20,000 nucleotides of DNA from Atractiella rhizophila (taxonomy: Eukaryota). Shown in pieces: positions 1 through 20,000 of the stretch. The number at the start of each line of letters is the position of its first letter. Positions within the stretch are counted from its first letter, which is position 1. The notes beneath the pieces were generated by a model. The model worked only from the letters and a program-made list of their open reading frames with translations, was not told the origin of the DNA and ran no database searches. The translations under genes were made by a program, and so were the position numbers. The DNA lies in contig MU271395.1 in NCBI GenBank assembly GCA_021432655.1, positions 46,121 to 66,120 on the forward strand, read 5' to 3'.

Positions 1-935
1 TGTAGGTGCAATGGATATGTAGCTTTTAGGATCTTCTACTCTGATAGATGACGACGTAGAAGGCTCAGAGGTATGCCACTCTTGTAAATCCGGATGTTGG
101 TCAAGGTATTCTTTGAGCCTGTTATGGAAAGGCGAGATGAGCAAAGAGAGCGACGGTGATGGGAGACTAACTTCTGTCGCTCTGTAAGCGTGTTGCTTCG
201 GCTAGCTAGCATTCTGCCCAAGCTACCTATAGTACTGACGATAACCGGGACTCAAAAATTGAAGTAATTGAGGTATTTGCACTCGTTTATGTGTGGTGAT
301 CTCAGAATTTGGAAATGGATGATCGAGTTGTCGGCTTTTACCTGTCATGGAAAAGTATTGCGGATTTCTATGTGGCTAGCATCATTTTTCAATTGCCCAA
401 CCAACTCTACATCCTGATCGATGGACAGCGATGGATGGGCAATCTGTGTCCCTGCAGCTCTTATCTACCCTCTAAAATGATGATACAACATCAGAGGGTA
501 GTAGTAGATTGAAAGTCCACTTTGGCCTCCTTGATTGACTTTACGATTTTGTGATGGGGCTGGAAACCGAAGACTCTCCGGTGCTCTCAGCGCGCAGGAC
601 GAGGATGTTGTCGCCCAATATGTCAGGTACCGAGTTATTCCAAGAACAGGGCTATATTCCAACTACATTCACGCTGCACTCTCCCATTTCCTTGCAAGAC
701 AGTTCAGTTCAAATCGGATCCATAGTATGCTTCCAGGACCAGTTCGATGATCGGTGGCTGCTGCAAATATCATCTGCACATCTGCGGTGCAGGCCCAGGC
801 CAGTCTCCATGTTTTCTGTCATTTTCAATTCCGGCCATGGTAGCCGGATAGCACACTTGTCTCATTCTTCTGTTCATGGTAACGCTTAACATTGACTATA
901 CGAACTATGTCCTGTAATTTTACAATTTCAACTAA

Positions 936-1913
936 TCACAATCCATATTTCGTCGTAAACCCCAAAATTTCCTGGCCAATTTCTTCTGCATGCGTTTCAA
1001 GCGCAAAATGGCCTGTTTCCAACAGCTTGACTTCCACATTCTTCGAGTCCTTCTTGTATGCTTCCGCTCCAGGGGGTAGGAAGAAAGGGTCACCGTTACC
1101 CCAGACCGCGAGAATGGGCACATTACTGCTCCTAAAGTAGTCGTGAAATTTAGGGTAGAGCTTGAGGTTGTTCTGATAGTCGTAAAACAAGTCGAGTTGG
1201 ATCTTCTCTTGCCCCGGTCGCTCCATCAGCGCTTGATCTAGCCAATACGCCTCTGGCTGAATAGTCGAAACGAGAGCAGAAGGGACACCTTGTTCGTACT
1301 GATATTTCGTAGTCTCGAACGCCGTCAGTTTCTTTCCTAGCGCCTCGCGTACTTCGGCACCATTTGTCTCCCAGAGAGGTTTCAGGGAATCCCAGAATTC
1401 AGAGAGACCTATGAAATCACATTCCTTCAATGAGTTATGACCGTTGCAGATTGCAGCCGTACCTTCGTTATACGCGTTTCCGTTCTGCGTCACTATGCCC
1501 AACACGTCCCCGGGCCTTTTCAACGCAATCCTCAACCCTACTGGTGCGCCGTAGTCGAAAATATAAAGAAGGAATTTATTGATTTCCAACTTTTGCAAAA
1601 AGGTTCCAATGGTTTCCGCCAGTGCGTCGAAGGTGTAAACGTAGGAGGAAGGCACAGTCGTGAACCCAAAACCCGGCAGGTCTGGCGCAACAACGTAATA
1701 TTTTTCTGCTAAGATACCTATGAGATGCCTATATTGGTGCGAGGACCTAGAAGTTTCGTTCAAGATCATTTTGCTTGTATTCTCACTGATCACTCACGTT
1801 GGAAAGCCATGAAGAAGCAAGAAGGTAGGATTAGAGGGATTGCCCGCCTTGCGGTAGAACACTTCCGTATCAGGGGACACAGGAACTCTGTGGACTGTAG
1901 TTACTGGTGCCAT
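936..1913 (-). CDS. Alpha/beta-fold hydrolase (epoxide hydrolase/haloalkane dehalogenase-like); exons 1913-1798, 1746-1463, 1408-936
   Basis: Splicing gives MAPVTTVHRVPVSPDTEVFYRKAGNPSNPTFLLLHGFPTSSHQYRHLI...VVAPDLPGFG...IFDYGAPVG...GNAYNEGLSEFW...TGHFALETH. This has the HGFP oxyanion motif, an Asp nucleophile motif (FDYG) and a catalytic His (GHF). Introns are GTGAGT..CTAG (1797-1747) and an in-frame 54-nt GTACGG..ATAG (1462-1409). Confidence 0.93.
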
Positions 1914-1991
1914 CGTTCCTCAATACTTGCGATATATTTTGCTTGATGTCGGGAGTGTTTCAGTTTGTGCGGAACCCATCCATGCTTCCTC

Positions 1992-1998
1992 TTTTATA
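1992..1998 (-). promoter_or_regulatory. TATA box (TATAAAA) of the hydrolase gene
   Basis: The + strand reads ttttata, which is TATAAAA on the - strand, about 80 nt upstream of the ATG at 1913. Confidence 0.5.
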
Positions 1999-2312
1999 GC
2001 CTCAGGCTGCCCAGCATATCCTGTGTTGTCGCAGGGAACACTCTGTACTCCATCTCTATTCACTTCCTCTTCCACTACTCACCTTTCCTCGGTGACAATT
2101 GCGGGAACGGGATGAGTCAGCGGCTGAGAACTTCGCTCTCCTCAATTGGCGCTGAGAGGTTGCAGCAGTACCTTTAAGTTCTTCGGCTGTTGGTCAATGT
2201 TGGTCGCTCCACACTCTTTGCATACGCTGGATTAAAGAGAGACCAGTTCGTCAAGCAAGAGATCGCGACAGTTACTGTTTTTGGTGATCGGTGTGCGGGA
2301 GGCATTCCGAGC

Positions 2313-2975
2313 GGTCACTGTTCTGGGTTACCCTACACTTCATTGAGCTTCATCGATGCTTCATCTTCATCTTCAGACTTGACCTCAAAACTTCCAACTC
2401 CCGACCTCCCGCTTAATCTGCTAATCGATATGAATCGATGTCAAATGCCAAATCTTTCAATTCAGCCTGTTGGGATGGGGTGAAATGGATGAAGCATGAA
2501 GCAATTCAAATTGCATGTGCCCTCAGATTCTTCTGAGCTTCGACCATTGGGCGGAGCAATTCACGTATTTCATGTCTGGCTGAATGTCTTTTAGCGCTCA
2601 CCCCCGGGTTAAGGACTGGGTTATTCTGAAAGGCGTGTGGGTGAGGTCACTGTACTGGGTTACCTACACTTCATTGAGCTTCATCGACGCTTCATCGTCA
2701 TCTTCAGACTTGACCTCAAAACTTCCAACTCCCGACCTCCCGCTTAATCTGCTAATCGATATGAATCGATGTCAAATGCCAAATCTTTCAATTCAGCCTG
2801 TAGGGATGGGATGAAATGGATGAAGCATGAAGCAATTCAAATTGCATGTGCCCTCAGATTCTTCTGAGCTTCGACCATTGCGCGGAGCAATTCACGTATT
2901 TCATGTCTGGCTGAATGTCTTTTAGCGCTCACACCCGGGTTAAGGACTGGGTTATTCTGAAAAGCGTGTGGGTGA
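2313..2975. repeat. Direct tandem duplication, two copies of about 331 bp (2313-2644 and 2645-2975)
   Basis: Both copies start ggtcactgt and end gcgtgtgggtga. By eye they differ by about 8 substitutions and one 1-nt indel. The ORF track shows the same peptide (YTSLSFIDASSSSSDLTSKLPTPDL...) twice. Confidence 0.95.
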
Positions 2976-4419
2976 TGAGTCGAGCACTTTTGACATTGTT
3001 TGATAGGGATTACAGTAAGCTAAGTAATCCGAGGAGCAAACAGGAGACGCTGATTGTCATTTTTGGCCGCCATTTTGCTCTCAAGCAGATGAAAATGTCA
3101 AGATATCTAGAGTGCCCTCATTGCAGCAATGAAGGATCGTTTTCGGCCCTTGCCTGGGATCACCTTGATTCCTTCTGGTCTGTCTGGGCTGACTGCGCCA
3201 TGGTGGCCAGACTGCGGTGACGTGAACGTTTCAAGCTTTCGCGCATGAGACTTTCAGAGCACCCTGACTGAAGGTTATGTGGTCTTTTTGAGTCGTTGAA
3301 TGGTGCAGAGCTGGCGCACTGACTCTGAATTCATGAGCTGTTCTTTTGGTCTCGTTTCTTACTTTCCCTTCCATTTCCTCATACGACATGTTGAACACCA
3401 ACAGCGATGTGAATACAAAGGCTCTCATTGCGAATCTGAAAGATGCTCGATTTCAGATCGACCCCAAGTCAATGGTATTCGGGAGCGCCAGCTCCATTTT
3501 GGAAATACAGGTGATTGGAGGGAGATGGAAGATAGAAAATACCAAAATGAAGGAAGCACTGACAACAGCGGGAAAGGTGGCTCATTATCTCTTTCCCAGG
3601 CTTTCTCTCTCAAGGTCCTGGATCGTGATTACAATAATGATTGATGTGGCAGGGATGTGCGGAAAGAAATGAAATAGACGGAAGATACAGGAACTGTCCA
3701 ACATTTTATGTTGGGGTGAAATGAAGTGCTAGTTTATCAGTTATCCGAGCACTTTCAACCCTTGGACCCCCCAAACCTAGCACAGTACTGACACCATAAA
3801 GGGTCACCTCCTCTTCGTCGCGACTGTTGCGACTGGGAGGTCTGGAAAAGAGTCCCAGCCCAGGATCACGGAGAGTCATCCGAGAACCTTATAGTATCTA
3901 GATCTGGCCTGGCCTGTGTTTCAATCAAAAAAGCCCGCGTCCACAGTCAAGGACCCTGTCTCAAGTCCCCAGTCTCCCTCAGCAAAACGACCAGCACAGA
4001 ACACCTTTAGCTACGTCCAGCGCGTTCAACAAACTCCAAAGGTCTGGGGAGCGCAGGAAATTGTTCGACCGGTTTCCGTTTCCAAGTTTGAGAAGAAGAC
4101 TCCGACGCGGACTTGGTTCCTCCCGAGCGCAAGTCTCAAGAGCGTAGAAAAATTCTAGGCTTCGGCTTCAAGATTGTTGCAGGCTGATTTTGGATCCTTT
4201 GATAGCGTTTAAGATTGGGCGTTGGTGAGTTGAACGCGCTTTCCGAACTTGTTTACGTTAGAAGGGGAGGAGTGTCGTTTCTTTCATCTTTCATCTGCCA
4301 TCTGAAGTAGCCTGGAGCTGGACTTCAGCGTTCGATTATCTTTATCATCCTCTTTGCATCCTATGCAACTAGCTGCAGGTGACTGACTACCATTGATTCC
4401 CGTTATTCCTCACGTCTAG

Positions 4420-5062
4420 AACGACGAAATGTCCATTCACAGCTCTCCGTCTTCCTCTTCTCTTCGAGGTGCCGAGAGTCAGAAATCGAAGAACGAGGAA
4501 GGAGAAGATCCAATGACCTCAAAGGATAACACTCTCAAAGCCTCTCAAGTTCGAAAGCTTTCCCTTGGGCCGAGTCCTCAACCTCAACCTCTTCCTGCTC
4601 CCATCCAGTTTCGAAGCCTTCAACAAATTGATTTCGAAGAACCAGCTTCCTCTAGCGTTACCACCGTCAAGATGGCCATCGTGGACTCTCCCCAAAGTCT
4701 ACCTCCCTCAGAACTACCCACGAGACCTACTTCGTTCGCAGACAGCCCTGTAACGGCTGAAGGCGCGACTGGAATATTGGACCTCTATGATTTCAAATCA
4801 GAAGAGGGAGATCTAGCTGCTGAGATGGAAGGGCTTTGGGATAGGAGCATGGAGAATCAGGCTAACGTGGATGCAAGGGAGCATTCTGCTGCGGGTGAGC
4901 ACCTGTTCACTTACGTTTTGTTGTGGCTGGAAAGGCTGGTCGTCTGAGCCGTTAGCATCCAATATCAGAAACCTCGCCATTGGGGCTATTGCTATTTTGT
5001 CATTTGTCGTCCATAAGACGTTTCGAGCTTTTCTCGAGGCTTTGTTCGGCCCTTCTTTATGA
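4420..5062 (+). CDS. Hypothetical Ser/Pro-rich protein with hydrophobic C-terminus; 5' end uncertain
   Basis: The 172-aa ORF at 4429-4947 has a phase-1 intron GTGAGC..TTAG (4895-4955) that splices in frame to ASNIRNLAIGAIAILSFVVHKTFRAFLEALFGPSL*. An acceptor (ctag at 4419) lies in frame just before the ATG, suggesting further upstream exons. No family recognised. Confidence 0.45.
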
Positions 5063-5661
5063 ATGCGCAGTTATATAGGGTCTAGGTCGGACTATCACTT
5101 GCACCTTGGCATTATCCTGCTTTTCTCAGTGCCGTGCCACCTCGCTTTCTGTTTTTGGCGTGTGACGGTGATGATGAAAGCATCAAAGAAAGAGGCAGTT
5201 CAAACCTACCCTCGATCACCGCTTGTGCATGTGAAGCGGGCGGGTTTGGTTCCGCAGTTCGGTGCGGAGGGAGGGAGACGAGTGTCGTGCGTTTGTCCGT
5301 CTCGGTTGTATCGAGGCGGAGGAGAGATGAAACCGACTCAAGGAGCGATCATGGTTTCCACGTTGAATGATTGATGACAAGTTGTAAAAAAAGCATGGCA
5401 TAGAACAACGAAGAGGAGGATCTCATCCGAGGATCTGCACTCTTATGATATCCTTTGTCTCTACTTCCCTTTTCCTCCCCCTCCAGCTCCAAATCTGTTG
5501 AATACCCACAGAGCACCTTAATATCTTTCCGTTTTGTCTCGGTTCGGCAAGAAGGAACCTGGATGTTCTAACTCACTTGTCGTCAACTTGCAGGTCCCTA
5601 CCAACAGGCTTCCTCTACGTCTCGAAGCAGTCCCACCCCCCAATTATCAGACCCTCATCGA

Positions 5662-6554
5662 ATGGCCTCACTCTCGACCAAACGCTCCTACTCAGCTCTC
5701 TCTAATAACAGCATAACCCCTACCCCTCCAACTACAAGTAAAGTCCCTTCCAATCCTGCCTCGCCGGGCTTGGGAGCAACAGCCTCTTCCCCGTGGTTAA
5801 CGTCGAGCACCGCTCACCACCCGAATACGTTGAAGAGCAAGATGTCAGCCACCTCCCTCAGGTCCATCCCCGAAGGCGCTTACCTGCCCAACGAAGCCTC
5901 AGCTGGCGGAAGTCCGCTCTCTCCTTCCGCCTCGTACCAGTCATTGTCGTACGAGAACCATCCCTTTGCCAGACCCCGGGCTGGTATCACACCTGAGCTT
6001 TCGTCAGGCAGTTCCTCCAGCCGGGCTAGTAGCAGCCTTTTCAGCCCAAGCAGCGCTGTGAGGAGCAGTGTTCATTCCACGGATGGGGAAACCGACGATT
6101 CGCAGAATCTTAATAAGAGAACCGTCTATTCAGATTGGATCCCCCCAGCTGGATCACAGCCCTCCTCCGTTAATTATCACAGTCAAGAGGGTTCTATCGG
6201 CGAGGCGGAGGAGGCTCGTCAGGATGGCACTGGCATGGTCGGTCTTGGTATCACCTCGGATGAGGCGGTGGAAAAGGCAGATGATGGCCAAAGAGTTTCT
6301 GCTCAACGGAGAAGGGGTTGGTCGTTGTCCCAGACGGGGGGGATGACCGCTTTGGATATGAGGAGAGCAAGCATTCGCGGTGGATTATCTCAACCACAGC
6401 TCAAGACATTGCAAGCTAGGTTGGAGAAAGCCGAAGAGCAAGCTTTAGGGAAATCTGGATATATTCCGGTCCCCTCATCGAATCTGCAGCCCCTTTTATC
6501 TCCTTTCGTCGAGATGCCGAACGAGAAAGAGTACGACTTCCCGCCGACGATCCC
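5662..6554 (+). CDS. 5' part (true N-terminus) of the LRR-RhoGEF-PH gene, cut off by the N gap
   Basis: ATG at 5662 opens a Ser/Pro-rich ORF that runs to the gap. 5887-6554 is nearly identical to 10716-11383, which continues into LRR, DH and PH domains. Confidence 0.85.
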
Positions 6555-6579
6555 NNNNNNNNNNNNNNNNNNNNNNNNN
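6555..6579. other. Assembly gap (25 N)
   Basis: Run of 25 n characters. Confidence 1.
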
Positions 6580-8011
6580 ATTTGTATGGGCACGGATAGG
6601 CGCCAGGTACCGCCAACTTCTATCCTTGACCACCTTGTAAGTCCTCGAATGGAAGGGGACCACGAGTTACCCGAGGTAGAGGACCCTGTGGGTGTTGACC
6701 TGTTCCGTGATGATACAGAGGCTAAGGAAGTCAACCGAAGGCTGAGGAAAGCTTTAAAGACTTCTACCCTTCAGCACGTTCTATAGTTCGATGTAGTTAT
6801 TAGACCTGGGCTTCTTCATAAGACTTCAGATATTTCACGAGCTCCTGTAGAAGGGAGCAAAGTATGGATACAAACTTTCTCAGAATAGCCTGAATCTCCT
6901 CCGGCACTAGTTCGCCCACCGCCTACCCACATCGCTCTGAGCCAGCCTGCTTCTTCTGCTTCTTCTGCTTCTTCCGCTTCTTCTGCTTTTTCTATTGCTA
7001 CTATTGGTGCTACTAAGACGCCTCCTCCTCTTTCTTCCACTTCTACCACCCCTTCTTCGCAGTCGCGGTGGAGGACGTCGAGGTCGAGCGTTTTCGGAGC
7101 CGCCAAGCCGGGAGCGCGTAATAAAGCTTCCTTCTTGTTCATCTCATGCCAGAGGCGGTAACCCTGGAGTTTATACAGTTCTTTCGACGAGTCCGCCTCC
7201 AGAGGCTACACCCACTTATAGGAAGTCTACCGCAAGTGCGTGCCGTCAAACGGTTGAAAGGTTGACATAGCGAAGCGCCCTAGTGCGAGTTTCAGTAACA
7301 GTTCGAACGCTTGTAGGATGAGTGCGGCCTTTTCGGCTGTATACTACCCCCTTTTACCGTGCATCTCCCATACTCCTTGCTCCGGTAGCAGAGCTGACCA
7401 TAGATAATAATGCTTCTTCTCTTGTAATGCCTCTCGTTCAACTCGAAATCTGCCCGCCACCTACTCCAATCAAGAAAGGAAGGCATAAGATATTCGAACA
7501 CAGTCACGATTAATCGCTTGACTTTTCGGACTTCTAATAGGTGTCTCGCTGTGCCGTCGTCACTACCGGCTCATGCGGAACGCTCCCAGACAGAAAGAGG
7601 AGAGAAGGGAGGAATGGAGGGAGTTTGACACATGTCACTACCTGGCGATTTGGTTGGGGACCCTTCACACCAGTGGTTTTTGTCCCCTCTACGTAGCGGA
7701 AGGGATTGATGTTAGTTGTGACGCAGAGAAGAAAGAGAGAGTAGCTGGGCTGGTTTGGTCCTGTAGCGTTTTATAACCAGAAGAAGGAGCAGCTAGGATG
7801 ATTTCTATTTCAGGGACTATGGAGGTAGCAGGGTGGGGTCGTTCGTCTAACCATATGGGGGCTTCTTAACTTCCTCCAACCTCCTGTTGCTTTCCGAAGC
7901 TTTCTCCTCCGTATATTCACCTCCGACCTCAACTACCTACTCGCATCGCTGAAACACGTGTTCTTGCTACTCAACCAAAAATTACACCCAAAGTTATACA
8001 CACTCGTAACT
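6580..8011. CDS. 3' part of the DUF4246 gene, readable only as the complement of the + strand in the left-to-right direction (minus strand once the block is un-reversed)
   Basis: The complement translates as KHTRAY...SDSFSWLPTPFEISEDGKSCKISSYINNLDPKKYSEVYKVLEDIFPRFIPMFERVLSDL...LRGITLKVIVKLANILLTPEKPTYDGGKWHVEGMRNEAIVSTGIYYYEEENITESKLSFRR...GRCIAFPNYNQHCVSSFSLIDPTKPGHRKILVFFLVDP...FNMCEH*. GT-AG introns lie at 7467-7527 and 7587-7636. About three single-base frameshifts fall at homopolymers. Confidence 0.92.
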
Positions 8012-8148
8012 CGCGACGCAACCCGCCAACTTAGCTTCAACTCGTAAACTGGTACACTTTGGACTACCTAATTCAGAACATGACAATCTGTTGTAGAACC
8101 CTTTATTTAATGTTACGCATAGTAAGACAGTCGGTTTTTCGTTGAACT

Positions 8149-9069
8149 AGTTAGTTCCTGAAGTTAGAAGCAAGGAAAAAAGGGTTGAGGTTAAGGAGGA
8201 GATCAAGGCAAGAGTGGAGGTCGGTGAAGACGACGAAGGTTGGTAGATTTTGTGGTTCCTTTTTGAGCTGAAAGAAAGAGAGGGAGAGGGAAAAGAGTAG
8301 ATGGTAGGTCGAGGTATAGAGCGGGTTAGGAGACGCACGCGCAAGGAAAACGAGCTCATTAGCCATCTCCAGCCACTCCTCCTCTACCTCGTCGACTAGA
8401 AGCCACTAAACACGATACCTCGCCTTCCTCCTCTACCGCTTAAAATCTCTCGGTACCTCCCACGCCAGCCACCTCCTCTTCTCCTTCCCTCGCTCACCCG
8501 CGTCCTCCCCTCCCTCCCCCTCCCTCTACTCGCCACCTATATTTGTATTGTGTTAGACAGGTGGCGTCAGCCAGTCATTCACGAAGCTGCACCATCGTTC
8601 CTTCTTCATGTTATGCATCTCCTATAACATACAATTTACTCCTCGGAGCGCAAGGTTTTAGCGTAGGTAAGGAAGTCCGCTTCTCAACCTGCGAAGGGAA
8701 GAAATAGCAGTTGGGTGGTTCCGAGGTTAAGGAGGGAGAGGAGAGGTCTTCGAAGGCGTTGAGGAGGAGGGGCCGACTCAGAGGACTATCGTAAGCGAGG
8801 GTGGAGAGGGAGAGGAGGAAGCTTTCGTAAGGATCTTCGAGGAGGAGTCAAGGGGGGATAAAGGTGGAGAGCGAGAAGAGGTAGCGGAAGACTAGGGCTT
8901 AGGCTCTTCGCAGGAGCTTAAAAGAAGTTCTATAAGTAGTAGCGGTGGAAGAGGAGAAAGCAGGAAAACGGTAGCAAGAGTTAAAGGGCGCGATAACTTA
9001 GAGCTATCTTTAAGAGACTCGTGAACTCTACAAAGAGAGGGAACTTTGTTCGCTCTCTCGTCATCCCCT
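8149..9069. repeat. Mirror-image copy of the zf-HIT gene 3' part (equivalent to 19103 to about 22 nt past the window end)
   Basis: The reversed sequence matches 19103-20000 and extends it with ...GTKIEVLD* (stop at mirrored 8151-8149). Confidence 0.93.
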
Positions 9070-9664
9070 TATACGATAGGGTAAAGTGACGGATGGACAA
9101 GATTTAGGACTTGATTGTCCGAACGCGGATGCCAATCCTTCTCAGATTCTGGAAGATCTTCGAGTGGGCGAAGGGAGGAGATGAGGGCGGAGCGCGTGGC
9201 GGAAGGTATCAACAAATCGCTCTGCCAGATCCCGTCGATACAGGAAACCTCAATGCCATCTTCGGCTCGAAGTCTGTCGTACTCCTACGGAAACAGATGA
9301 GACAACTTACAAATCAAAGAAAAGAACGAACCTCCAATTCCTTTAGCACCCAGTCGACGGCTGCAGCGCTTAGCTTTCGCTTGATGTAGGCTACAGGTAT
9401 CTCTTGTTCTAAGGCTTCCTCTTTCCACTTCTCGCGGATCGTCTCGTCCTTGTATTTCTGTGTCACAAGGGTTTCAGTCTGGAACCGTTCTTGTGAGAGA
9501 GGTCTTACCTCCCACCATTGCGGTTTGGAGCGAATTGAAGCAGACAAGAAACACATCCTCAGCTCAGTGGTCGAAAAGAGTGAGTTAGATCCCCCAGTGA
9601 AGGGGTTTGGATATTCCTTCGGCGCATTTGGGCCGCTTGGGTCTTCATCCGAGTAGTCTGACAT
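9070..9664 (-). CDS. DUF4246 family protein, 5' part; exons 9664-9509, 9457-9332, 9284-9070
   Basis: Translation is MSDYSDEDP...ELRMCFLSASIRSKPQWWEKYKDETIREKWKEEA...AVDWVLKELEEYDRL...IDGIWQSDLLIP...LEDLPESEKDWHPRSDNQVLNLVHPSLYPIV(Y). The IRxKPxWWxK and DWHPxSxxxVLxLVHPSLYP motifs are typical of DUF4246. Introns are canonical (9508-9458, 9331-9285). Confidence 0.9.
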
Positions 9665-10330
9665 CGCAATCAATGAGGTGCTGATTCTGGGATCTTCTCC
9701 CTTTTAAGGACACACAAAGAGAAGGATGAGTCCTATGACTGCTGTTGAGCGGACGTTCGGCTGAAGGAGCATGTTGCACTACTATGCGCGTGGACTTACT
9801 GCTGTATAGTTCAATATTGAAACAAATCAGAGCAGACGTTGCGCAGAAGACGCGAAGTAAGTCTTGATTGCTGTTTGAACCAGGGAGTTGACAATTTGTC
9901 GACTATGAACTGGATCAATCAACACAATTTTAAGGTAATGTTAATGTTAAAGCGCTATATACCTAGTTTTTATGAACCCCTCCAACTTATCGATGGGAAG
10001 GGACAAGCGATCTTGGAAGTAAACTTGAAGTGATGGAGTTGGAAGGGAGAACTACCAAGTCCGGAAATTTGGTGGGCGGAGTGGGACAAACTGCCCTGGT
10101 GTAACTCTTGTGCTGTCAATATCAATTAAGTCTTACTGCTCAGCAAGTTGTTTTGAGTGTTTTGACATTCGATTTATTTCCTTGCCTAGTATGTATGGTG
10201 AACGTTGCAACTGCCGATTCGGCGAACTGCCATGCCATCTCCGAAGTGAGGGATGGATGCGATTGTGTTTCGTGTTGTCTAAAACCTGCAATTACAAATA
10301 ATCAGATTGTACTGCAGCGTGAATGATCAA

Positions 10331-10715
10331 TCAATCAATCAAATCGTTGTATATGTGGAAAGGCTGGTTAAAACCATCGAATCCGAATCGTGCTTCTGCC
10401 TGACTTCACTTCTTTCATCCATCAACTTCAACCTCCACTGCTCCTTCGAAACCTGTCTTTGTCTATCAACCTCCTTCAACTCTTCCGGAGTATACTTATA
10501 CTAATCCTCCTGCTGAGTAGGAATGATGGATGTATCAGGACTTCGGTCGCTGTAGGATCGACAAGGAAGAAGACCAAATGTTATATAGTCGAAAATGGGA
10601 AAGGCGATACATCTTCCCTCTTTGGTCATCACGCTTCTGAGAGGCTGTTTGAGTCGGCCATCCCTGTGACTGGAGTGTAAGGAGGAGGACGGAGGAGAAG
10701 GGGGTGCGAATTTTA
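10331..10715 (-). pseudogene. Degenerate DUF4246 paralog fragment (last exon plus part of the preceding intron)
   Basis: After a ...gtcacag acceptor it reads DGRLKQPLRSVMTKEGRCIAFP..LVFFLVDPT..PDTSIIPTQQED*YKYTPEELKEVDRQRQVSKEQWRLKLMDERSE. This is collinear with the last exon of the intact gene (DGPLNQPLGSVVTKQGRCIAFP...PDTSIVPPQQADWYTPEELKEV...WRLELMDERSD) but has an internal deletion, frameshifts and a Trp-to-TAG stop. Confidence 0.85.
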
Positions 10716-11383
10716 CCCAACGAAGCCTCAGCTGGCGGAAGTCCGCTCTCTCCTTCCGCCTCGTACCAGTCATTGTCGTACGAGAACCATCCCTTTGCCA
10801 GACCCCGGGCTGGTATCACACCTGAGCTTTCGTCAGGCAGTTCCTCGAGCCGGGCTAGTAGCAGCCTTTTCAGCCCAAGCAGCGCTGTGAGGAGCAGTGT
10901 TCATTCCACGGATGGGGAAACCGACGATTCGCAGAATCTTAATAAGAGAAATGTCTATTCAGATTGGATCCCCCCAGCTGGATCACAGCCCTCCTCCGTT
11001 AATTATCACAGTCAAGAGGGTTCTATCGGCGAGGCGGAGGAGGCTCGTCAGGATGGCACTGGCATGGTCGGTCTTGGTATCACCTCGGATGAGGCGGTGG
11101 AAAAGGCAGATGATGGCCAAAGAGTTTCTGCTCAACGGAGAAGGGGTTGGTCGTTGTCCCAGACGGGGGGGATGACCGCGTTGGATATGAGGAGAGCAAG
11201 CATTCGCGGTGGATTATCTCAACCACAGCTCAAGACATTGCAAGCTAGGTTGGAGAAAGCCGAAGAGCAAGCTTTAGGGAAATCTGGATATATTCCGGTC
11301 CCCTCATCGAATCTGCAGCCCCTTTTATCTCCTTTCGTCGAGATGCCGAACGAGAAAGAGTACGACTTCCCGCCGACGATCCC
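10716..11383 (+). repeat. 668-bp direct repeat of 5887-6554
   Basis: Same sequence at offset 4829. Differences seen: TCC/TCG (Ser), ACC/AAT (Thr/Asn) and GCT/GCG (Ala). Confidence 0.97.
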
Positions 11384-14300
11384 CCGCAAGGCGTTGGCGA
11401 GGTCCAACACCAATCCACACACCACTACCCTCTCTACTCTCTCGAGCGAATCGCAGCGATTGTCGTCCTACTCAGGCAACTCGTACGAGCCTTCATATAC
11501 CTCGTCTCGCGAGCATCATGCAGACGGAGAAACGGATGATGACGACGACATTGATCCCTATCCACCAATTGACCACCTCCCAAATATTGACACGGAGAAC
11601 TATAGCCTCGAAGTTCCTGTGCTCAAGCATGGAGTGATCAAAGCAGAACCCACTGCTGTGGTTGTCGCAGAGGAGGGTAGAGCCGTCATCGCCGACAAAT
11701 CTGGAGAGTCTCTGTTTGGGGTTCGTTTGACTGATGGTACTGTTCCTCTCTTACATGCTTTTTCCGTGTGCTAACGTTCTTACATAGGCACAACGCATTT
11801 GCTGCTTCGTCACACACAAACACCTGATTTGGTCATTCCTTGCTTGATGGATGCTATTCCTTTGATCACTCAAACCCTACTAGTCTTAGACATTTCGTAA
11901 GTGTCTAACTCTTCCGGGCACTGGATCTGACCCAATCCCCTAGCTCCTGTCAGCTTCTGGAAGTCCCCAAGATTCTTTCGTCCTGCCAGGCTCTTGAGGA
12001 GCTAAATGTTTCTTCAAACCCACTCGACTGCCTGCCATCTTTTCTCAACAGAATTACTTCTCTGCGAGTTTTGATGGCCGACAAATGTGGACTGATCACT
12101 CTTTACAACGACCTCAGCGACCTCCAGAATCTCCATACCATCTCACTCAATGACAATGCACTCAGAGCTCTTCCAGCCTGGCTCTGTCAACTAGCATCTC
12201 TAGAGCATCTCTTCTTGGACGGAAACGCGTTCCAGTCGGAATGGCAGAAACTAATCAGACCCGTTCTACTGAGGCGAGACGAGCGCAGTAACTCGACCAA
12301 CACGGATTTTGCCTCCTTCCCTAGCTCTAATACGATGTCATCTGCTTCCTCCATCTCCGACGGTTCGATTTCTCAGGGCGAACAATCGCCTCCACCTTCT
12401 TCTGGTTACCTGGAAAAGCCTGCTTCACCAGCTCGAAGTCGATTGATGTCGTTTGGTCGAGCTAAAGCCCGTCCTGAGCTACCTTCTGTCGCGTCGAGCC
12501 CATCCATAGAGAGGATGCCTGCACCGCAGCCGAAAAGAATGAGAAGTTACGGTGATATGGACCTCAATTTGTCTACGTCCTCTGTCGGCAGCTCGCCCCG
12601 CGAGTCCATGATTGAAGTCAATTCTCAACTCAGCTCAGGGGCTAACTCTCCCATCGCGCCAAGCGCTTCGATACGCTCCCTCAACAACTCGATCCCGTCT
12701 ACTCCGTCTCCTCTCGCTAGCGTGCAACCAATCACATTCGAAGGGGACGAGGGCGATAAGGATGGGAAAAAGCGAAAGTGGGGCTTCCTCAAGAAGATGA
12801 GTATGACCACAATGAACAAGCATCCAGAGCCTCGTTCAGCCAGGCCGCATCGACACAACGATGAAGGTCGAACGGCGTCCGACTCATCTAGCTCCTATCC
12901 TCGTTCTGCCAGAGGAAATGGCTCTTTGCTTGGTCGTCCAAGAGCAGGGAACAGAAATTCACAGCTGATCGTGGAAGAAACAAAGACTTTGAATAAACGT
13001 CGAAGTTTCCTCCTCCTGCACAACAACACTAGAGCTGTCACCCCAGAGCCAGCAACTCCCGACGCTTCTTCAGATAGCAATGTGGTGGATTACAAAGCTG
13101 GACTGAAAGCCATCATTGCTTATCTACAGGATCTCAATGATCTGACTCCAGCTCCTGGAGGACCAGTTCACCGCAACACTCAGGCATCAGCCTCATCGCC
13201 AAACCTTTCCGCATTGGCCTCAGGTAATGCGTCCCAGCCTTTGCTAAGGAATCCTTCTTCCCGTAGAGGCACGGATGCTATGGGCTCTTTCGACAGCTCC
13301 GGAAGGTCCACGCCAACGCCTAACGAAATACAAAAGGAACCAGCGATCAAATGCAAGGAAGATGCAGCACGTAGGGAGAAGATTCTCGAGGAAGTGCTCA
13401 GTAGCGAGCGCACCTATCTTCGCCAACTGAAAGAAATGGTGGATATCTACGTAAAGGAGGCCGAAAAAGAGGTTGCAGTCAGTAGCACTGGCAAGAAAGA
13501 GCCTGTGGTTCCGATCGCAGAGAGACGAACCATATTCGGCAACATCGACAACATCATTCACTTCCATGAGTCTGTCTTTTTGCCGAACCTCGAATCAGCG
13601 GTGGAGATTCTGTTTATAAAGCGTAAAGCGGGCGATACAGTCGATACAGCCTTCATTCGTTTCATGGCGGACCAGGTCGCTCGCGTCTTTACCCAACATT
13701 CTGCCTTTTTCAAGTGCGTATACCACTTCGCTCCGTTTTGTGCTCATAGTGATCACAGGCTCTATGCTCCATACATCAACAACTTTGATCTGGCGCTGTC
13801 CCGTTTAAAGGCGTGGAATGCCCCCAAGTCTCCGCCGCCACCGACATCTTCCAGCAGCTACAGCATGGCAAAATCTGTTTCGTCAATGGGTGCGGCTGTC
13901 AGCTTGGGGATGTCGGGCATCACAGAACAGAACAGCAGCATGCCGTTGTCTGAAAGTCAGAAAAAACGACTCAAGGGATACTTGAAAAAGTGCAAAGCTG
14001 ATCCACGTCACACTCAAGTGTCGTTGGAGAGCTACCTTCTACTTCCCGTTCAACGCATCCCTCGGTACAAACTCCTCCTCGAGAACCTTCTGTCTTGCAC
14101 TCCAGTGGACAACAAATCACTGATGCCTGACCCAGTCATCAAGGAAGCTGCTGATATCATTGCAGAGATCACTGCTGACATGAATGAGAGAAAAAGGGAG
14201 AGTGAATCACGACATCGATTAGTGAGCACGTCGCAATTCTGCTAATCTTGGTTAATGTGTTTCTTCAGCTCTTCTGGCAACAGCGTATTCGCAATAGATT

Positions 14301-14870
14301 CCGCTCACCGCTCGTTCAACCCCATCGACGGATGATGAAAGAGGGCACAGTCGTACTTATGAGGGTGCTAAAACGAAGATCGCAATACGTTGATGTTGGG
14401 CAACAGTCCTCGGCCGGGGACGTGAACTCCAATTCTGGGACCCTCCCAAGTGGCGAGCGAAGCCTTATACAGGTCAACTCGTTGGAAGTGGAAACTGAAA
14501 CTAGACGTCTGGTATGGCCATGGAACCTATTGTGACTTATCTCACGTCGGAGATAGATTGCCCTCTTGTGCAGTGACATTCTTGTTCTGTGCAAAGAGCC
14601 AGAAGATGGAATGGATGGCACTGGTCCCGTCGATCTCTACACCGTCATTCGTCTCAGTCCCACTCCGGGGGTTAAGTCAGTTCCAGCTAGCATGTTTGGC
14701 CCAGCTGGTTCCAGTATGAATCTCATGCCATCTAGCGTATCGCGCAAGCTAACTCTGGTCTCACAGTGATCCGCTTGGTGGATAGCCGAGCGATTTTGTA
14801 CCTCAGCTGTCCTTCCCATGCCGAAGCTCTCACATGGGTCGAGTCGATCAATCTTCAGATGCAATCGTAA
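10716..14870 (+). CDS. Leucine-rich repeat + RhoGEF (DH) + PH domain protein; this copy lacks the first ~75 codons
   Basis: Exons are 10716-11736, 11788-11896, 11944-13713, 13759-14221, 14269-14511, 14557-14713 and 14767-14870. LRRs: LLVLDISSCQL, LEELNVSSNPL, LHTISLNDNAL, LEHLFLDGNAF. DH: RREKILEEVLSSERTYLRQL, IFGNIDNIIHFHE, LYAPYINNF, SLESYLLLPVQRIPRYKLLLENLL. PH-like C-terminus: LLCSDILVLCK...AEALTWVESIN. Confidence 0.92.
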
Positions 14871-15633
14871 TTTAGAACTCCCAATCTCCCATTTCTTTCA
14901 ACTTTCAGTAAAGCATCTAGTTGTTTCAGATCCAAAGCAGCTCTAACGGCCTGTTCAATTCACACATCAGCAGATATCCTTTTGTATCAACAGCTTAAAA
15001 CATCCGATCTTCAAAATTCTTGATTATTTGAGAAAAAACATAGATGATATACTCTTTGGTTATTCACCTTCGGTTTTCAGACTATAGTACCAGTATATCC
15101 ATCCCTGTTCTTGTTTACTCTGTGTTGCGCTACACTCTTTCCTCCCATTTTAGTTTCTGTGGGCTCAGTTGAAACCATATACTATTGGTCCTGAAGTTGT
15201 CCACATATATATTCATTCCGTCTTACACTTTCTTATTTCAAGATTGATACTTACGTTCCTTTTTGTTGTTCGATTTAGCTGTATTCCTCCAAAAGAGGAT
15301 TAACCTTCTCTCTCCTCTCTCTCCTCTCTTGAGTACGCTGTTGACTCGCAACCCAGTCGTCCTTCACTTCTTCCATCCACTCTCCCAGCTTCAGTCCATC
15401 ATTTATTCGACTCTTTTTCAGGTGATGTAGTTGTCTCTCTTTCGGGTGCATGAGATGCAATCAAATCAAGTTCAAAAATCGAGCTTCGAGCTTGGAGAGG
15501 AAGAACTGGAGAGAGTGGAGTGGAGATCGTAGTCATACATTAACATGAGGCTCCCTCGAAACAAAATGGGAGACACGGTGATTTGTTATTCCCAAATATG
15601 TGGTCAGTTTCTGACAACATAACGATCCTGCCT

Positions 15634-16362
15634 TTAGCAACAGGAGGCTCCCACCTCTTGGACTTCTGCTTGGCCTGTGAGAGTGTCTCTGGCGAATGTA
15701 AGATAGCCAAATCCAGCGCCTTAGTGCAAATGTCAACTTGGAGTACGGTAAAGAGAAAACGGACGGACCGAAGAATATTGCGAAGAGGATGATGACGTTA
15801 AAGTACATCCCCAAAAGCATGAGAAGGAACGCAACCGTGAATTGGACCGTGAACAAGAATGCACGGATTGAGTGCTCGAAAAGCGTTGGCTCGAATGTGA
15901 TCACTGATGGGAGATTGCTGTCCCTTGTTGCGTTGAAAAGCTCAGTCCTCATGCCACCACAGAAGGAGAAGCTAAAGCTCACCGCTTGTTGAGGGAAGTC
16001 ACGGAAGATGAATCCTTCACGACGGCTGAGGTGGCGTTCTTCTTCTTTCGCACGATGTAACGATCGAATTCCCTCATCGATCGCCGAACGCCTTCGACGA
16101 GGAATGCCATGAGGAAGATACCGATGAAGGTAAAGGCAAATGCAGCTGTGATCTGTCAGCATGGGATGTCTGCTTGAATGCATTGCGCACTTTTGGAGCG
16201 AATATGCCAATCTCGCGAGAGGAAGCAGGCGTCCTCGACGTACCAGTTGAACAGCATGCTAATCTGTTATCGTCACAATCAATGAGTAATTGACGCTGTA
16301 AATACAGTTGTGGGAAGACTCACTTTGCAGGCATGGCCGCTTCCGTCACCACCCATATCCAT
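15634..16362 (-). CDS. Ctr family copper transporter (Ctr3/Ctr4-type high-affinity), 5 exons
   Basis: Spliced product: MDMGGDGSGHACKISMLFNWYVEDACFLSRDWHIRSKTAFAFTFIGIFLMAFLVEGVRR...EHSIRAFLFTVQFTVAFLLMLLGMYFNVIILFAIFFGAGFGYLTF...GASCC*. It has the CKISMLxNW motif, MxxxM in TM2, GxxxG in TM3 and a C-terminal CC. Confidence 0.93.
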
Positions 16363-16550
16363 TTTGCTACGTGAGAATTTGAGAACTGAGAATTGAGAAC
16401 TGCAGGAGAGGCTGGAGAAACTGTCAGGAGCTTCTGGAGATTGCGCATGCAAGAGGGCCTCTTTTATGGCCAAGTCGAGAAGGTTGGACGCTCCCGGATC
16501 AAGTCAGAACATCGATGTTCCCATCGTTGTTCCGAAACGGAGCTAGCTGA

Positions 16551-16558
16551 TGAGCAAA
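16551..16558 (-). promoter_or_regulatory. Copper-response element (TTTGCTCA, Mac1/Cuf1-type) upstream of the Ctr gene
   Basis: tgagcaaa on + is TTTGCTCA on -, about 190 nt upstream of the Ctr ATG. A near match (agagcaaa) lies at 16658-16665 and a second exact TTTGCTCA lies on + at 17147-17154. Confidence 0.5.
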
Positions 16559-17343
16559 CAATGAATGGAAGGAACGGAGGAGCATAGTCCTCCCTGCTCC
16601 CGTTGAGAGAGGCAAGCAAGTTGTAAAATATCCAGTCTATCATTCGAAATTAGAGCAAGAGCAAAAATGTCTCTCATCTCAAAGAAACAAGAGGCCTTTG
16701 TGCTATTGGAATATCTAATGAAAACTGCACCGCCATCCTGATGAACATCTCCTCTTATCAATGGGTTACATATCATATGACGGGCAATTTATCGGCAACT
16801 CTACTTGGAGAGCAGCAGCCCCGTCACGATCCGTTGTGCGCGCTTCGATCTCATAAGCCATAACTTCTTTCGTTAGTTAGACTTGTCCATTCCGTCCTTA
16901 ACCCAGATGAAGGAAGGGAGAAAGAAACTGCAAACACTAATTGGAGGTGACATCCTATGGCATATTCTATAGCTGTGGATTGAGCTTGAGGCCACCGCAA
17001 AAATCGCGCAGAGGGTCTTCTGCTGCATCCGCCCACTGCAAGCATACGGTGCATCTTCCAACATTTGGCGAGAAGCCTAACCGTCAAAAGGAAAAGCATA
17101 CATCAACGCCGAATGACAGAGAAAATGCAAACCTTCTTTCTCCCCTTTTGCTCAAGCGCCAACCACGACGGTCGTGATGGGTAGACTAAGTGAACGCTTG
17201 GAGGTATAAATATTTAGAGACTATGCGAGTACCGATACAGACACATAAGCTTTATCCTCTTCTATATCAGTGTTCATTCGAGCTGGAGGAAACATTGGAC
17301 GTACCACTTCAATCACTTCACTGAGAGGTAGCAATGGGCTCTT

Positions 17344-18743
17344 CTAAAGGAAATAATCCAGCGGCACCGCTTTCGCCGGTATTTTTCTTGCATCCTAGGA
17401 CCCCCAAAATATCGTCAGTGAGTCGAATGAGAGGAGATTTGGGGAATGAAGAAGTGGAAACGAACGAGAGGAGCTGCATCAAAGGTCTTGAAGGTTTTTT
17501 CGAGGGAATCATCAAACGAGAGAATGGAGGCGACATTCCCACACCTTGCTATCCTTTGTCAGTCATTCATTATTCTGAAGATGAAACAGCCTACCGATAG
17601 CAATAGTTAGGCGCCGACCATACTGTTACAAGGCGACGGTCAAACTGCATCTTATAGCCTTCCATCACCTGTAATCGTCGTCAGGATATGAAAGCATCTG
17701 AAGAAAGAGAAGTGGGAAGAGGAGAGAGCGGCTGACAAGCTGGTGCGCTCGAGCAATTAGTTCTAGATTGTTGTCATGCACGAACTTGTGGCACACATCC
17801 GCTCCAAACACATATCCCGCTCCACGCGGAGAGATGCTCCATCCTTTGATATCTGCTCCAGCACGAGTATCACCATCGGAGAAAGAAGTGCGAGGGAAAA
17901 GATACCTTCTGGGTCTGACCATAGGAGATCACACATTGAGCCGTCGTGTGGAACCTCTTGTTTGCGATCAATGAGGACGATCTATAATCAGTCAGTCACC
18001 ATTAGCACATGAATTCAATCAAGGAAGAGAAGAGCACACTTGATCCACGCTCTGCACGCTCGGGCTCAATCCACCATGGACACATAGCACCTCCTCCTGA
18101 ATCAAGGCCGCAAGTGGTAAGGTAATCGAAGACTTCACAGCAGTACCTCCAGACGCTACTGCTGCCGTATTTTCGAACGCATTCGTCGTAGAACCCATAG
18201 ACTTGCGTTATTTGCCGCGATTCGTGGTTTCCTCTGATGAGTGTCATCCGGTCGGGATAGCGCACTTTGAGGAGAAGGAGGAGGAGGAAGGTCTCGACAC
18301 TGTAGTGACCGCGGTCGACAAAATCACCTGAAGTATATACACATGTGAGCGATGTGAATAGAGGGAAGATGAAGTGAAGATTGACGGACCCATGAATAAG
18401 TAATTGGTATCTGGACACATCCCTCCTGTCCGGAAGAGCTCCATTAAATCCTGAAACTGTCCATGTATATCGCCGCAAATCTATTCGTTCCCTTTCATAA
18501 GCATTCAGACCAGAGGCGCTTAGACCGGAGAAGGGACACGAACAGTGATTGGAGCCTGGACGCGCTCGACATTGCCTTCTTCGATCAAAATCTCCCTCGC
18601 CTTCAGACACAACTCTTTCACCTCCGTCTCCGATATTGGTTCGCAACGCTTCAGCTGTTCTATCTGCCTGTACACCCGCCTCTTCTTCAGAGGCTAGAGT
18701 CTCACAAGGACAAAGAAACTCACCTGTCAATGTCGGAAGACAT
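17344..18743 (-). CDS. PPH3: Serine/threonine protein phosphatase 4 catalytic subunit (PP2A-like PPP family); one apparent +1 frameshift near 18120
   Basis: Spliced product: [34 protein letters not shown]...ICGDIHGQF...GDFVDRG...[39 protein letters not shown]...CVHGGLSP...[22 protein letters not shown]...[10 protein letters not shown]...RAHQLVMEGY...[13 protein letters not shown]...LDYFL*. The DRQIEQL, KYGS..VWRYC and [11 protein letters not shown] segments match PP4 better than PP2A or PP6. Confidence 0.92.
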
Positions 18744-18767
18744 GGTCGCCGTTTTGAGAGGTGGAAC

Positions 18768-18777
18768 ATCACGTGAT
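18768..18777. promoter_or_regulatory. Palindromic E-box ATCACGTGAT in the short divergent promoter between the PP4 and zf-HIT genes
   Basis: Perfect 10-bp palindrome containing RTCACGTG (Cbf1/bHLH-type site) in a ~115-bp intergenic region. Confidence 0.4.
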
Positions 18778-18857
18778 ACGAAGAACGCGAAAATCGCCCA
18801 CACCTTCAATTGTTTGTCAGGTCGATGCTAACTTGAGAGCGCGGTTACAACGCAAGG

Positions 18858-20000
18858 ATGGATGCACGAAAGGGCCCCCAGACGTCACTTCTATCACTTT
18901 CCCTGCGCCCACGAACGGCCATCTCCAGCCAGCGGAACCACATCAGTTTTCTTCTCCTCAACCGCTCGGTTCTTCTTCCTCTGCCACCTCAACATGCCTT
19001 CTGTATGTCATGTTTCTCCCTGGTGTGCCCAGATGCTGACTACAAATAACGCTAAAAGGTGTGCGAAGAACGAGTCCCGATATATCTGCCCAAACTGCAA
19101 CGTCCCCTACTGCTCTCTCGCTTGTTTCAAGGGAGAGAAACATCTCAAGTGCTCAGAGAATTTCTATCGAGATTCAATAGCGCGGGAAATTGAGAACGAT
19201 GGCAAAAGGACGAAAGAGGAGAAGGTGGCGATGATGAATATCTTGAAGAAATTCGAGGACGCTTCCTCTCGGATTCGGGATCAGAAGGCGATGGAGAAGA
19301 GCGAGAGGTGGAAATAGGGGAAAGAGGAGGAGCTTCTAGGAATGCTTTCGAAGGAGGAGAGGGAGAGGTGGGAGCGAATGCTATCAGGAGACTCAGCCGG
19401 GGAGGAAGAGTTGCGGAAGCTTCTGGAAGAGGAGAGGGAGGAATTGGAGCCTTGGTGGGTTGACGATAAAGAAGGGAAGCGTCCAACTCTTCGCCTGAAG
19501 GAATGGATGCGATTTTGGAACGCGAGGCTCCTCATTTAACATACAATATCCTCTACGTATTGTACTTCTTCCTTGCTACCACGTCGAAGCACTTACTGAC
19601 CGACTGCGGTGGACAGATTGTGTTATGTTTATATCCACCGCTCATCTCCCTCCCCCTCCCTCCCCCTCCTGCGCCCACTCGCTCCCTTCCTCTTCTCCTC
19701 CACCGACCGCCCTCCACGGCTCTCTAAAATTCGCCATCTCCTCCTTCCGCTCATAGCACAAATCACCGAAGATCAGCTGCTCCATCTCCTCCTCACCGAC
19801 CTCTACCGATTACTCGAGCAAAAGGAACGCGCACGCAGAGGATTGGGCGAGATATGGAGCTGGATGGTAGATGAGAAAAAGGGAGAGGGAGAGAAAGAAA
19901 GTCGAGTTTTTCCTTGGTGTTTAGATGGTTGGAAGCAGCAGAAGTGGCTGGAGGTGAGAACGGAACTAGAGGAGGAATTGGAGTTGGGGAAAAAAGGAAC
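18858..20000 (+). CDS. HIT-type zinc finger protein (ZNHIT2-like), running past the window end; several apparent frameshifts
   Basis: Removing intron 19003-19058 gives TCLLCAKNESRYICPNCNVPYCSLACFKGEKHLKCSENFYRDSI, resembling the ZNHIT2 pattern RYxCPxCNxPYCSLxC...CxENFYRD. Later segments include LLGMLSKEERERWERML, LEPWW and HLTYNILYVL. The start at 18858 needs a 1-nt correction. Confidence 0.8.

Follow-up and report, generated by a model that had tools for sequence, protein, structure and literature searches.

Mirror repeats of the H-DNA type are short, low-complexity homopurine/homopyrimidine tracts with little or no spacer. The locus described here shares their same-strand mirror symmetry, but it consists of 2.5 kb of complex genic sequence with the two copies 10 kb apart. 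Repeats left by template switching, inversion or transposition also bring a second copy into the "opposite" order nearby; such repeats are reverse complements, whereas the block studied here gave no minus-strand match in a self-blastn search. The reversal of a sequence without complementing it is a known kind of software bug, and one long-read gap filler takes 25 N as its smallest gap. An orientation bug in assembly or gap-patching software resembles our case in several respects: only plain reversal makes the block match genuine sequence, the block is bounded by an N gap on one side and by a contig-like end on the other, its quality is that of a draft, and once un-reversed it restores a gene and fits public contigs.

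Among the marks of false duplications listed in the passages considered of PMC9516828 is a gap between the duplicated pair. The false heterotype duplications treated in those passages resemble our locus in that two almost identical copies share a scaffold and are separated by a gap, as is the case here for 5887-6554 and 10716-11383, and, as in criterion (2) of that paper, the former piece ends at the gap and finds its copy at the latter. The pair formed by T (the block in its true letter order) and 19103-20000 shows the same likeness, and two alleles were seen in one of the public samples described below. At our locus, unlike in those passages of the paper, one duplicated piece is also backwards. 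Read depth is a further criterion of that paper. A long-read gap filler was applied to other fungal genomes, according to the passages considered of 10.1101/166231. A literature search found no published account of reverse-without-complement or mirror blocks in assemblies, and no Atractiella genome paper was among the matches listed.

The window, that is, the whole stretch of 20,000 nucleotides analyzed, holds the features collected in Table 1. Its open reading frames (ORFs) carry eukaryotic, fungal-type families, and a homologue search with them returned the Atractiella rhizophila proteins P0001 (zf-HIT, 353 aa), P0002 (DUF4246, 608 aa), P0003 (DUF4246, 547 aa) and P0004 (LRR-RhoGEF, 1172 aa). 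The contig listed for P0001 and P0002 is 64,578 bases long, and that for P0004 has 74,494 bases. Scans of the window for tRNA and Rfam families found none.

Table 1. Coordinates of the features in the window; proteins P0001 and P0002 are those named above, and X1, X2 and X4 are public sequencing runs described in the text.
Feature	Positions	Strand	Remarks
alpha/beta hydrolase ORF	936-1793	-	family assignment
668-base direct duplicate	5887-6554	+	equals 10716-11383, 99.401%, 4 mismatches, 0 gaps; ends at the N run
Assembly gap	6555-6579		25 N, the only N run in the window; adjoins block 6580-9069
Mirrored block	6580-9069		2490 bases, letters reversed but not complemented; once un-reversed, directly left of 9070
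Mirrored coding sequence of P0002 aa 167-608	6581-8008	minus after un-reversal	tblastn
Mirror scan match 2	7775-7969 / 10387-10577		72% mirror
Mirrored coding sequence of P0001 aa 64-353	8152-9067	plus after un-reversal	reversed-block positions 3-916
Mirror scan match 1	8171-9069 / 19103-20000	same strand, reversed
Mirror scan match 3			single 21-letter match
DUF4246 ORF	9069-9703	-	family assignment
Segment V	9070-10714		genuine, correct orientation, listed on the minus strand; includes the beginning (5') of the DUF4246 gene and a C-terminal piece of a paralogue of it
5' part of the DUF4246 gene (P0002 aa 1-165)	9664-9072	-	cut at the block/9070 junction
DUF4246 paralogue, C-terminal fragment	10387-10662	-	cut at join 10714/10716
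Join	10715-10716		bridged by no aligned contig of X1, X2 or X4
LRR + RhoGEF ORF	12071-14245	+	family assignment
Ctr copper transporter ORF	15533-16210	-	family assignment
Metallophosphoesterase ORF	18002-18772	-	family assignment
zf-HIT ORF	18862-19317	+	family assignment
Forward copy (T')	19103-20000	+	first 898 bases of the un-reversed block, within a zf-HIT gene starting at about 18858

A sequence-only reading of this DNA had proposed that 8171-9069 read backwards equals 19103-20000, that the match stops exactly at 9069, and that the whole of 6580-9069, up to the 25-N gap, is mirrored. The alignment that it suggested was run within the window, with 6580-9300, reversed and uncomplemented, as the blastn query and the 20,000-nt window as the target. 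A single match was returned, between 8171-9069 plainly reversed and 19103-20000 on the plus strand, with 98.013% identity over 906 columns, 3 mismatches and 11 gap openings (bit score 1559, E 0.0), so the first claim holds. Both blastn and the alignment listing place the end of the match at 9069 / 19103, as had been stated, and its other end coincides with the window end. The sharp stop at 9069 arises because the reversal moved the far end of T beside 9070, and 6580-8170 lacks an in-window partner because that partner would fall beyond base 20000. An ordinary self-blastn found no direct or reverse-complement partner of 6580-9069 within the window. As a chance control, the whole window was scanned for mirror matches, and only the three given in Table 1 were detected, the 72% match being there because it is paralogous DUF4246 coding sequence. 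The match between 8171-9069 and 19103-20000 is thus real and far above chance.

Protein alignments tell what the block contains. For P0002 aa 167-608, tblastn matches were found only on the reversed window (positions 13420-11993) and none on the window as written, and in the mirrored block this protein is present as exact segments, broken by two introns and some minor indel faults. When the block was un-reversed in place, P0002 aa 95-343 aligned without gaps across the block/9070 junction, with 100% identity over 249 aa, and the same residues formed one exact segment in a separate exact-segment comparison. As written, by contrast, the DUF4246 frame stops at 9069, in such a way that the ORF 9069-9284 covers only positions 21-85 of the 401 of the Pfam profile. 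The exact segments of P0001 in the un-reversed block extend to aa 353. These protein matches show that T begins with the 3' part of the zf-HIT gene and continues with the DUF4246 gene, of which it holds the 3' three quarters.

Public sequencing data were also used. Logan contigs from four public runs with part of 6580-16579 were aligned to 6580-20000. Two of the runs, X1 and X2, come from one sample (shares of 0.62 and 0.61), and X4, with a share of 0.42, comes from another; the contigs of X4 show intron-like GT..AG / CT..AC skips, and for this reason it is taken as an RNA run. The fourth, X3, has a share of 0.07, gave on the block as written a single 18-letter match (7021-7038), and was excluded from all claims. 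Logan contigs may stem from another isolate, as about 191 positions of X1 over 10.9 kb disagree with the window. When the window was spliced at six introns taken from the X4 contigs, its translation equalled P0004 at 1172 of 1172 residues; the window is therefore from Atractiella rhizophila, and very likely from the same strain as those proteins.

At the 9070 junction, the loose ends that precede 9070 in X2 (96 letters) and X4 (255 letters) gave a 30-letter consensus identical to the reversal of 6580-6609 at 30 of 30 positions. The 2677 letters of X1 record 1 cover 10081-9070 and continue for 1665 more, the last 77 of which fall on 19924-20000; this leaves 1588 letters between 20000 and 9070, to be compared with the 1591 letters of the block that lie beyond the window end. 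In the same record, a weak match of paralogue type begins 1192 letters beyond the junction, to be compared with 1195 predicted from the un-reversed block. No contig of X1, X2 or X4 was placed on 6580-8819 of the block as written, and they cover from 9070 on, an absence of cover that was not counted as evidence. In the DNA of the X1/X2 sample, T runs directly into 9070, and the same is found in X4, in what is taken as a DUF4246 transcript. The un-reversed form at 9070 is therefore supported by two samples, either of which may differ from the assembled isolate.

The composition of the block was also studied, with a strand-symmetric order-4 Markov model trained on the window outside the block and a score defined as the log-likelihood of the written order minus that of the reversed order. 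The block scored -74.5 and 6580-8170 alone -38.7, whereas all 14 control chunks of 2490 bases scored between +63.8 and +99.8. Summed over its three longest open frames, the block gives 330 aa in the written order and 604 aa after reversal; in the control chunks that do not overlap the block, the longer frames were those of the written order (11 of 11). The k-mer make-up of the block is that of DNA of the same genome read backwards. A composition profile along the window showed no mark at the block.

The P0002 alignment, the ends of the contigs at 9070, the geometry of X1 record 1 and the Markov score agree that 6580-8170 is mirrored as well, so that the proposed extent of the mirrored block, up to the 25-N gap, stands. 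These data show that the block is T, the sequence that truly precedes 9070, written backwards, rather than a mirrored duplicate of DNA from far away. The fault lies in the orientation of T, not in its placement relative to 9070.

The quality of the two copies of T was compared. Between the block and 19103-20000 there are 11 indel events, and the claim of the sequence-only reading that these are homopolymer indels applies to 6 of them, which lie within runs of at least three identical letters, but not to the remaining 5. P0001 is not in one frame in either copy; not counting the intron, its frame changes 7 times in 19103-20000 and 5 times in the reversed block, one change, near 19491, being common to both. 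The public contigs agree with the block and against 19103-20000 at three indels (19709, 19751 and 19876), and carry a letter T behind 19489 that both copies lack. The candidate view in which 19103-20000 is a clean original and the block its noisy copy was rejected on the counts of frame changes and on these three indels. Both copies are thus of draft quality, and a cleaner copy elsewhere must have been the source of the P0001 and P0002 predictions.

The neighbourhood of the block is also disturbed. The two copies of the 668-base duplicate differ at 6018/10847, 6122/10951, 6123/10952 and 6351/11180, and the public contigs carry the letters of the left copy (5887-6554) at 10951, 10952 and 11180. 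At 11180 both letters are present in X2, with a depth of 214 out of 314.8 (depths of contigs, not of reads), and at 12483 two letters are found in X1, with a contig depth of 136.9 out of 221.8; the summing depths at these two positions correspond to two alleles in the X1/X2 sample. At 5887-6554, two contigs probably overlap as alleles and were left unmerged. The start of P0004, the RhoGEF orthologue, falls within the repeat (6235 = 11064), its first 106 aa are encoded identically by both copies, and it did not separate 5886/5887 from 10715/10716.

X1 records 1 and 2 cover segment V gap-free, 6 letters being different, and record 20 of X4 shows splicing within it. No contig bridging 10714/10716 was found among X1, X2 and X4: those of X1 and X2 end at 10714 or begin at 10716, and X4 record 21, which begins at 10716, reaches only 5 letters past the join. 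The loose end before 10716 in X1 and X2 (111 letters) corresponds to window 5857-5886, and the one behind 10714 in X1 is 219 letters long, its first 30 being absent from the window. The order in the X1/X2 sample is thus 1-5886, 10716-19102, T and 9070-10714, and then sequence outside the window, where T corresponds to the sequence at 19103-20000 plus about 1.6 kb beyond the window end. This order leaves every gene intact.

Several explanations were weighed for this arrangement. That the organism's DNA really contains a 2.5-kb same-strand mirror copy, made by an unknown copying mechanism, has in its favour that the deposited sequence reads that way, and this is its sole point. The contigs of two samples carry the un-reversed sequence beside 9070, a gene becomes continuous over the junction, at 100% identity, once the block is un-reversed, the k-mer make-up is that of backward-read DNA of the same genome, the block adjoins an assembly gap, and we know of no polymerase that copies parallel strands, all of which make the idea of real mirror DNA extremely improbable. 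Even less credit is due to a natural mirror repeat of the triplex-forming type. Mirror symmetry is indeed the defining property of such repeats, but here the 2490 bases are of coding type, their purine fraction is 0.50, the longest runs of purines or pyrimidines measure 28 and 25 letters, and the partner lies 10 kb away without a short spacer, in such a way that composition and partner distance rule this candidate out.

It would also be conceivable that software reversed the block at a place that is real, if in the assembled isolate a unit of 12.5 kb (10716-19102, T and 9070-10715) were duplicated in tandem and the 25-N gap stood for about 7.7 kb of unassembled first copy, equal to 11384-19102. 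The written order fits exactly an arrangement A-U-U-R with one unfilled gap, in which copy 1 opens with the 668-base repeat and closes with T and V, and copy 2 opens at 10716; the 668-base copies do differ at 4 places, and a duplication specific to the assembled isolate would also yield the join 10714/10716. We consider it unlikely, as X1 and X2 pass from 5857-5886 into 10716, and X1 from 10714 elsewhere, with no break at a branch point; in addition, the join is unbridged by contigs in X1, X2 and X4, a point that holds for those samples only, and the X2 depths of both letters at 11180 sum like alleles, which again speaks for that sample only. A further possibility concerns the step at which the letters were reversed, as manual editing, file conversion or record submission after assembly could have done the same. 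The sequence itself does not show which step it was, and a hand edit would also respect the limits of the block (a gap and a contig-like end); on the other hand, a gap-bounded block with patch-like indel faults is typical material of an automatic patcher, and a later edit is improbable to our judgement, more so than the duplication.

The explanation that we prefer as a whole, with a probability of about 95%, is that 6580-9069 is an artefact of assembly software in which the true left neighbour of 9070 was reversed without complementing. Such a software reversal had been suspected from the letters, and gene continuity, the public contigs, composition and the position beside the 25-N gap all support it. 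That T is reversed and that it truly adjoins 9070 are direct observations from the alignments and contigs. As to the mechanism, a piece of 2490 bases that belongs left of 9070 would have been written into the scaffold in reverse letter order, in such a way that its far end (= 19103) now touches 9070 and its near end touches the gap. T would be a draft-quality extension, probably from long reads, that was added at the left end of the contig starting at 9070 when the gap was patched but left unclosed. A patching or scaffolding program is suggested as the cause by the position of the block at the gap, by its draft quality and by its piece-like limits, and the small indel faults that the block has against P0002 and P0001 are those expected of an unpolished patch, for which a long-read origin seems plausible.

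With less certainty, the whole of 5887-10715 could be a compound scaffolding fault in a heterozygous isolate, made up of the duplicate, the gap, the mirrored T and segment V, the last being a small contig set on the wrong side of 10716-19102. The true order would then be 1-5886, 10716-19102, T and 9070-10714, followed by sequence absent from the window. The misplacement of V is suggested by contigs that may come from another isolate. It is conceivable, though rather doubtful, that the block is one symptom of a systematic patching or scaffolding fault, with similar reversed pieces at other gaps and in other drafts.

The mirror-image block is consequently an error in the database rather than a real feature, and the practical value of the finding lies in an error report and a cheap assembly scan, not in a biological discovery. 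As deposited, the DUF4246 gene is cut at 9070 with its other three quarters unreadable, the zf-HIT gene is in part duplicated, one of the copies being backwards, and the start of the LRR-RhoGEF gene is duplicated. Any ORF called in 6580-9069 is meaningless; the earlier warning that annotation of the block is invalid proved right for the ORF scanned (6816-7142, minus strand), for which a profile scan found no Pfam family. A plainly reversed block looks like unique orphan sequence because ordinary alignment tools miss the reversal, and it can be mistaken for novelty. If the fault were systematic, gene models would be silently destroyed and sequence without read support created, and a cheap scan, in which gap-flanking blocks are reversed and searched or a k-mer orientation score is computed, could clean many assemblies.

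The join between the segment at 9070-10714, which lies to the right of the block written reversed and uncomplemented (6580-9069) and holds the 5' part of a DUF4246 gene, and the sequence from 10716 onward was not bridged by any of the public-run contigs compared. In contigs from X1 and X2, two public runs of one sample, the sequence at 5857-5886 runs on into 10716, and an X1 contig enters, past 10714, sequence that is not present in the window. Base 10715 (A) is compatible with neither of these continuations. A fragment of a second DUF4246 paralogue is truncated at this same join. As listed in the table, the sequence that begins at 10716 is a direct duplicate, whose left copy ends exactly at the N gap (6555-6579). 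This repeat doubles the start of the LRR-RhoGEF gene, and residues 1-106 of its protein, P0004 (1172 aa), read the same from either copy.

Direct duplicate and paralogue fragment in the window (P0002 and P0003, DUF4246 proteins of A. rhizophila)
Feature	Position	Strand	Comparison
Direct duplicate, 668 bases	5887-6554 and 10716-11383		4 mismatches, 0 gaps
Second DUF4246 paralogue, C-terminal fragment	10387-10662	minus	47% to P0002 aa 486-595, 44% to P0003

Elsewhere, a 331-base unit is present twice in tandem at 2313-2975, the copies being 97% alike without indels. No Pfam family was detected in the scanned ORFs overlapping it, and the pair may represent either a genuine repeat or a further false duplication.

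In its forward copy (19103-20000) the zf-HIT gene showed seven frame changes relative to the zf-HIT protein P0001, and small indels against the public contigs at 19489, 19709, 19751, 19876 and 19920; this stretch is likewise draft-quality, or a divergent allele. In the first intron of this gene, positions 19003-19058 are skipped in contigs from X4, a run of another sample. Within that intron the X1 and X2 contigs carry 18 additional letters after 19013; here the window and the X1/X2 sample differ by an indel.

The X4 contigs, through intron-like skips, also defined six short GT..AG introns of 45-53 bases at 11064-14870, and the coding sequence spliced at them matches P0004 in all of its residues (1172 of 1172), which confirms the LRR-RhoGEF gene model.
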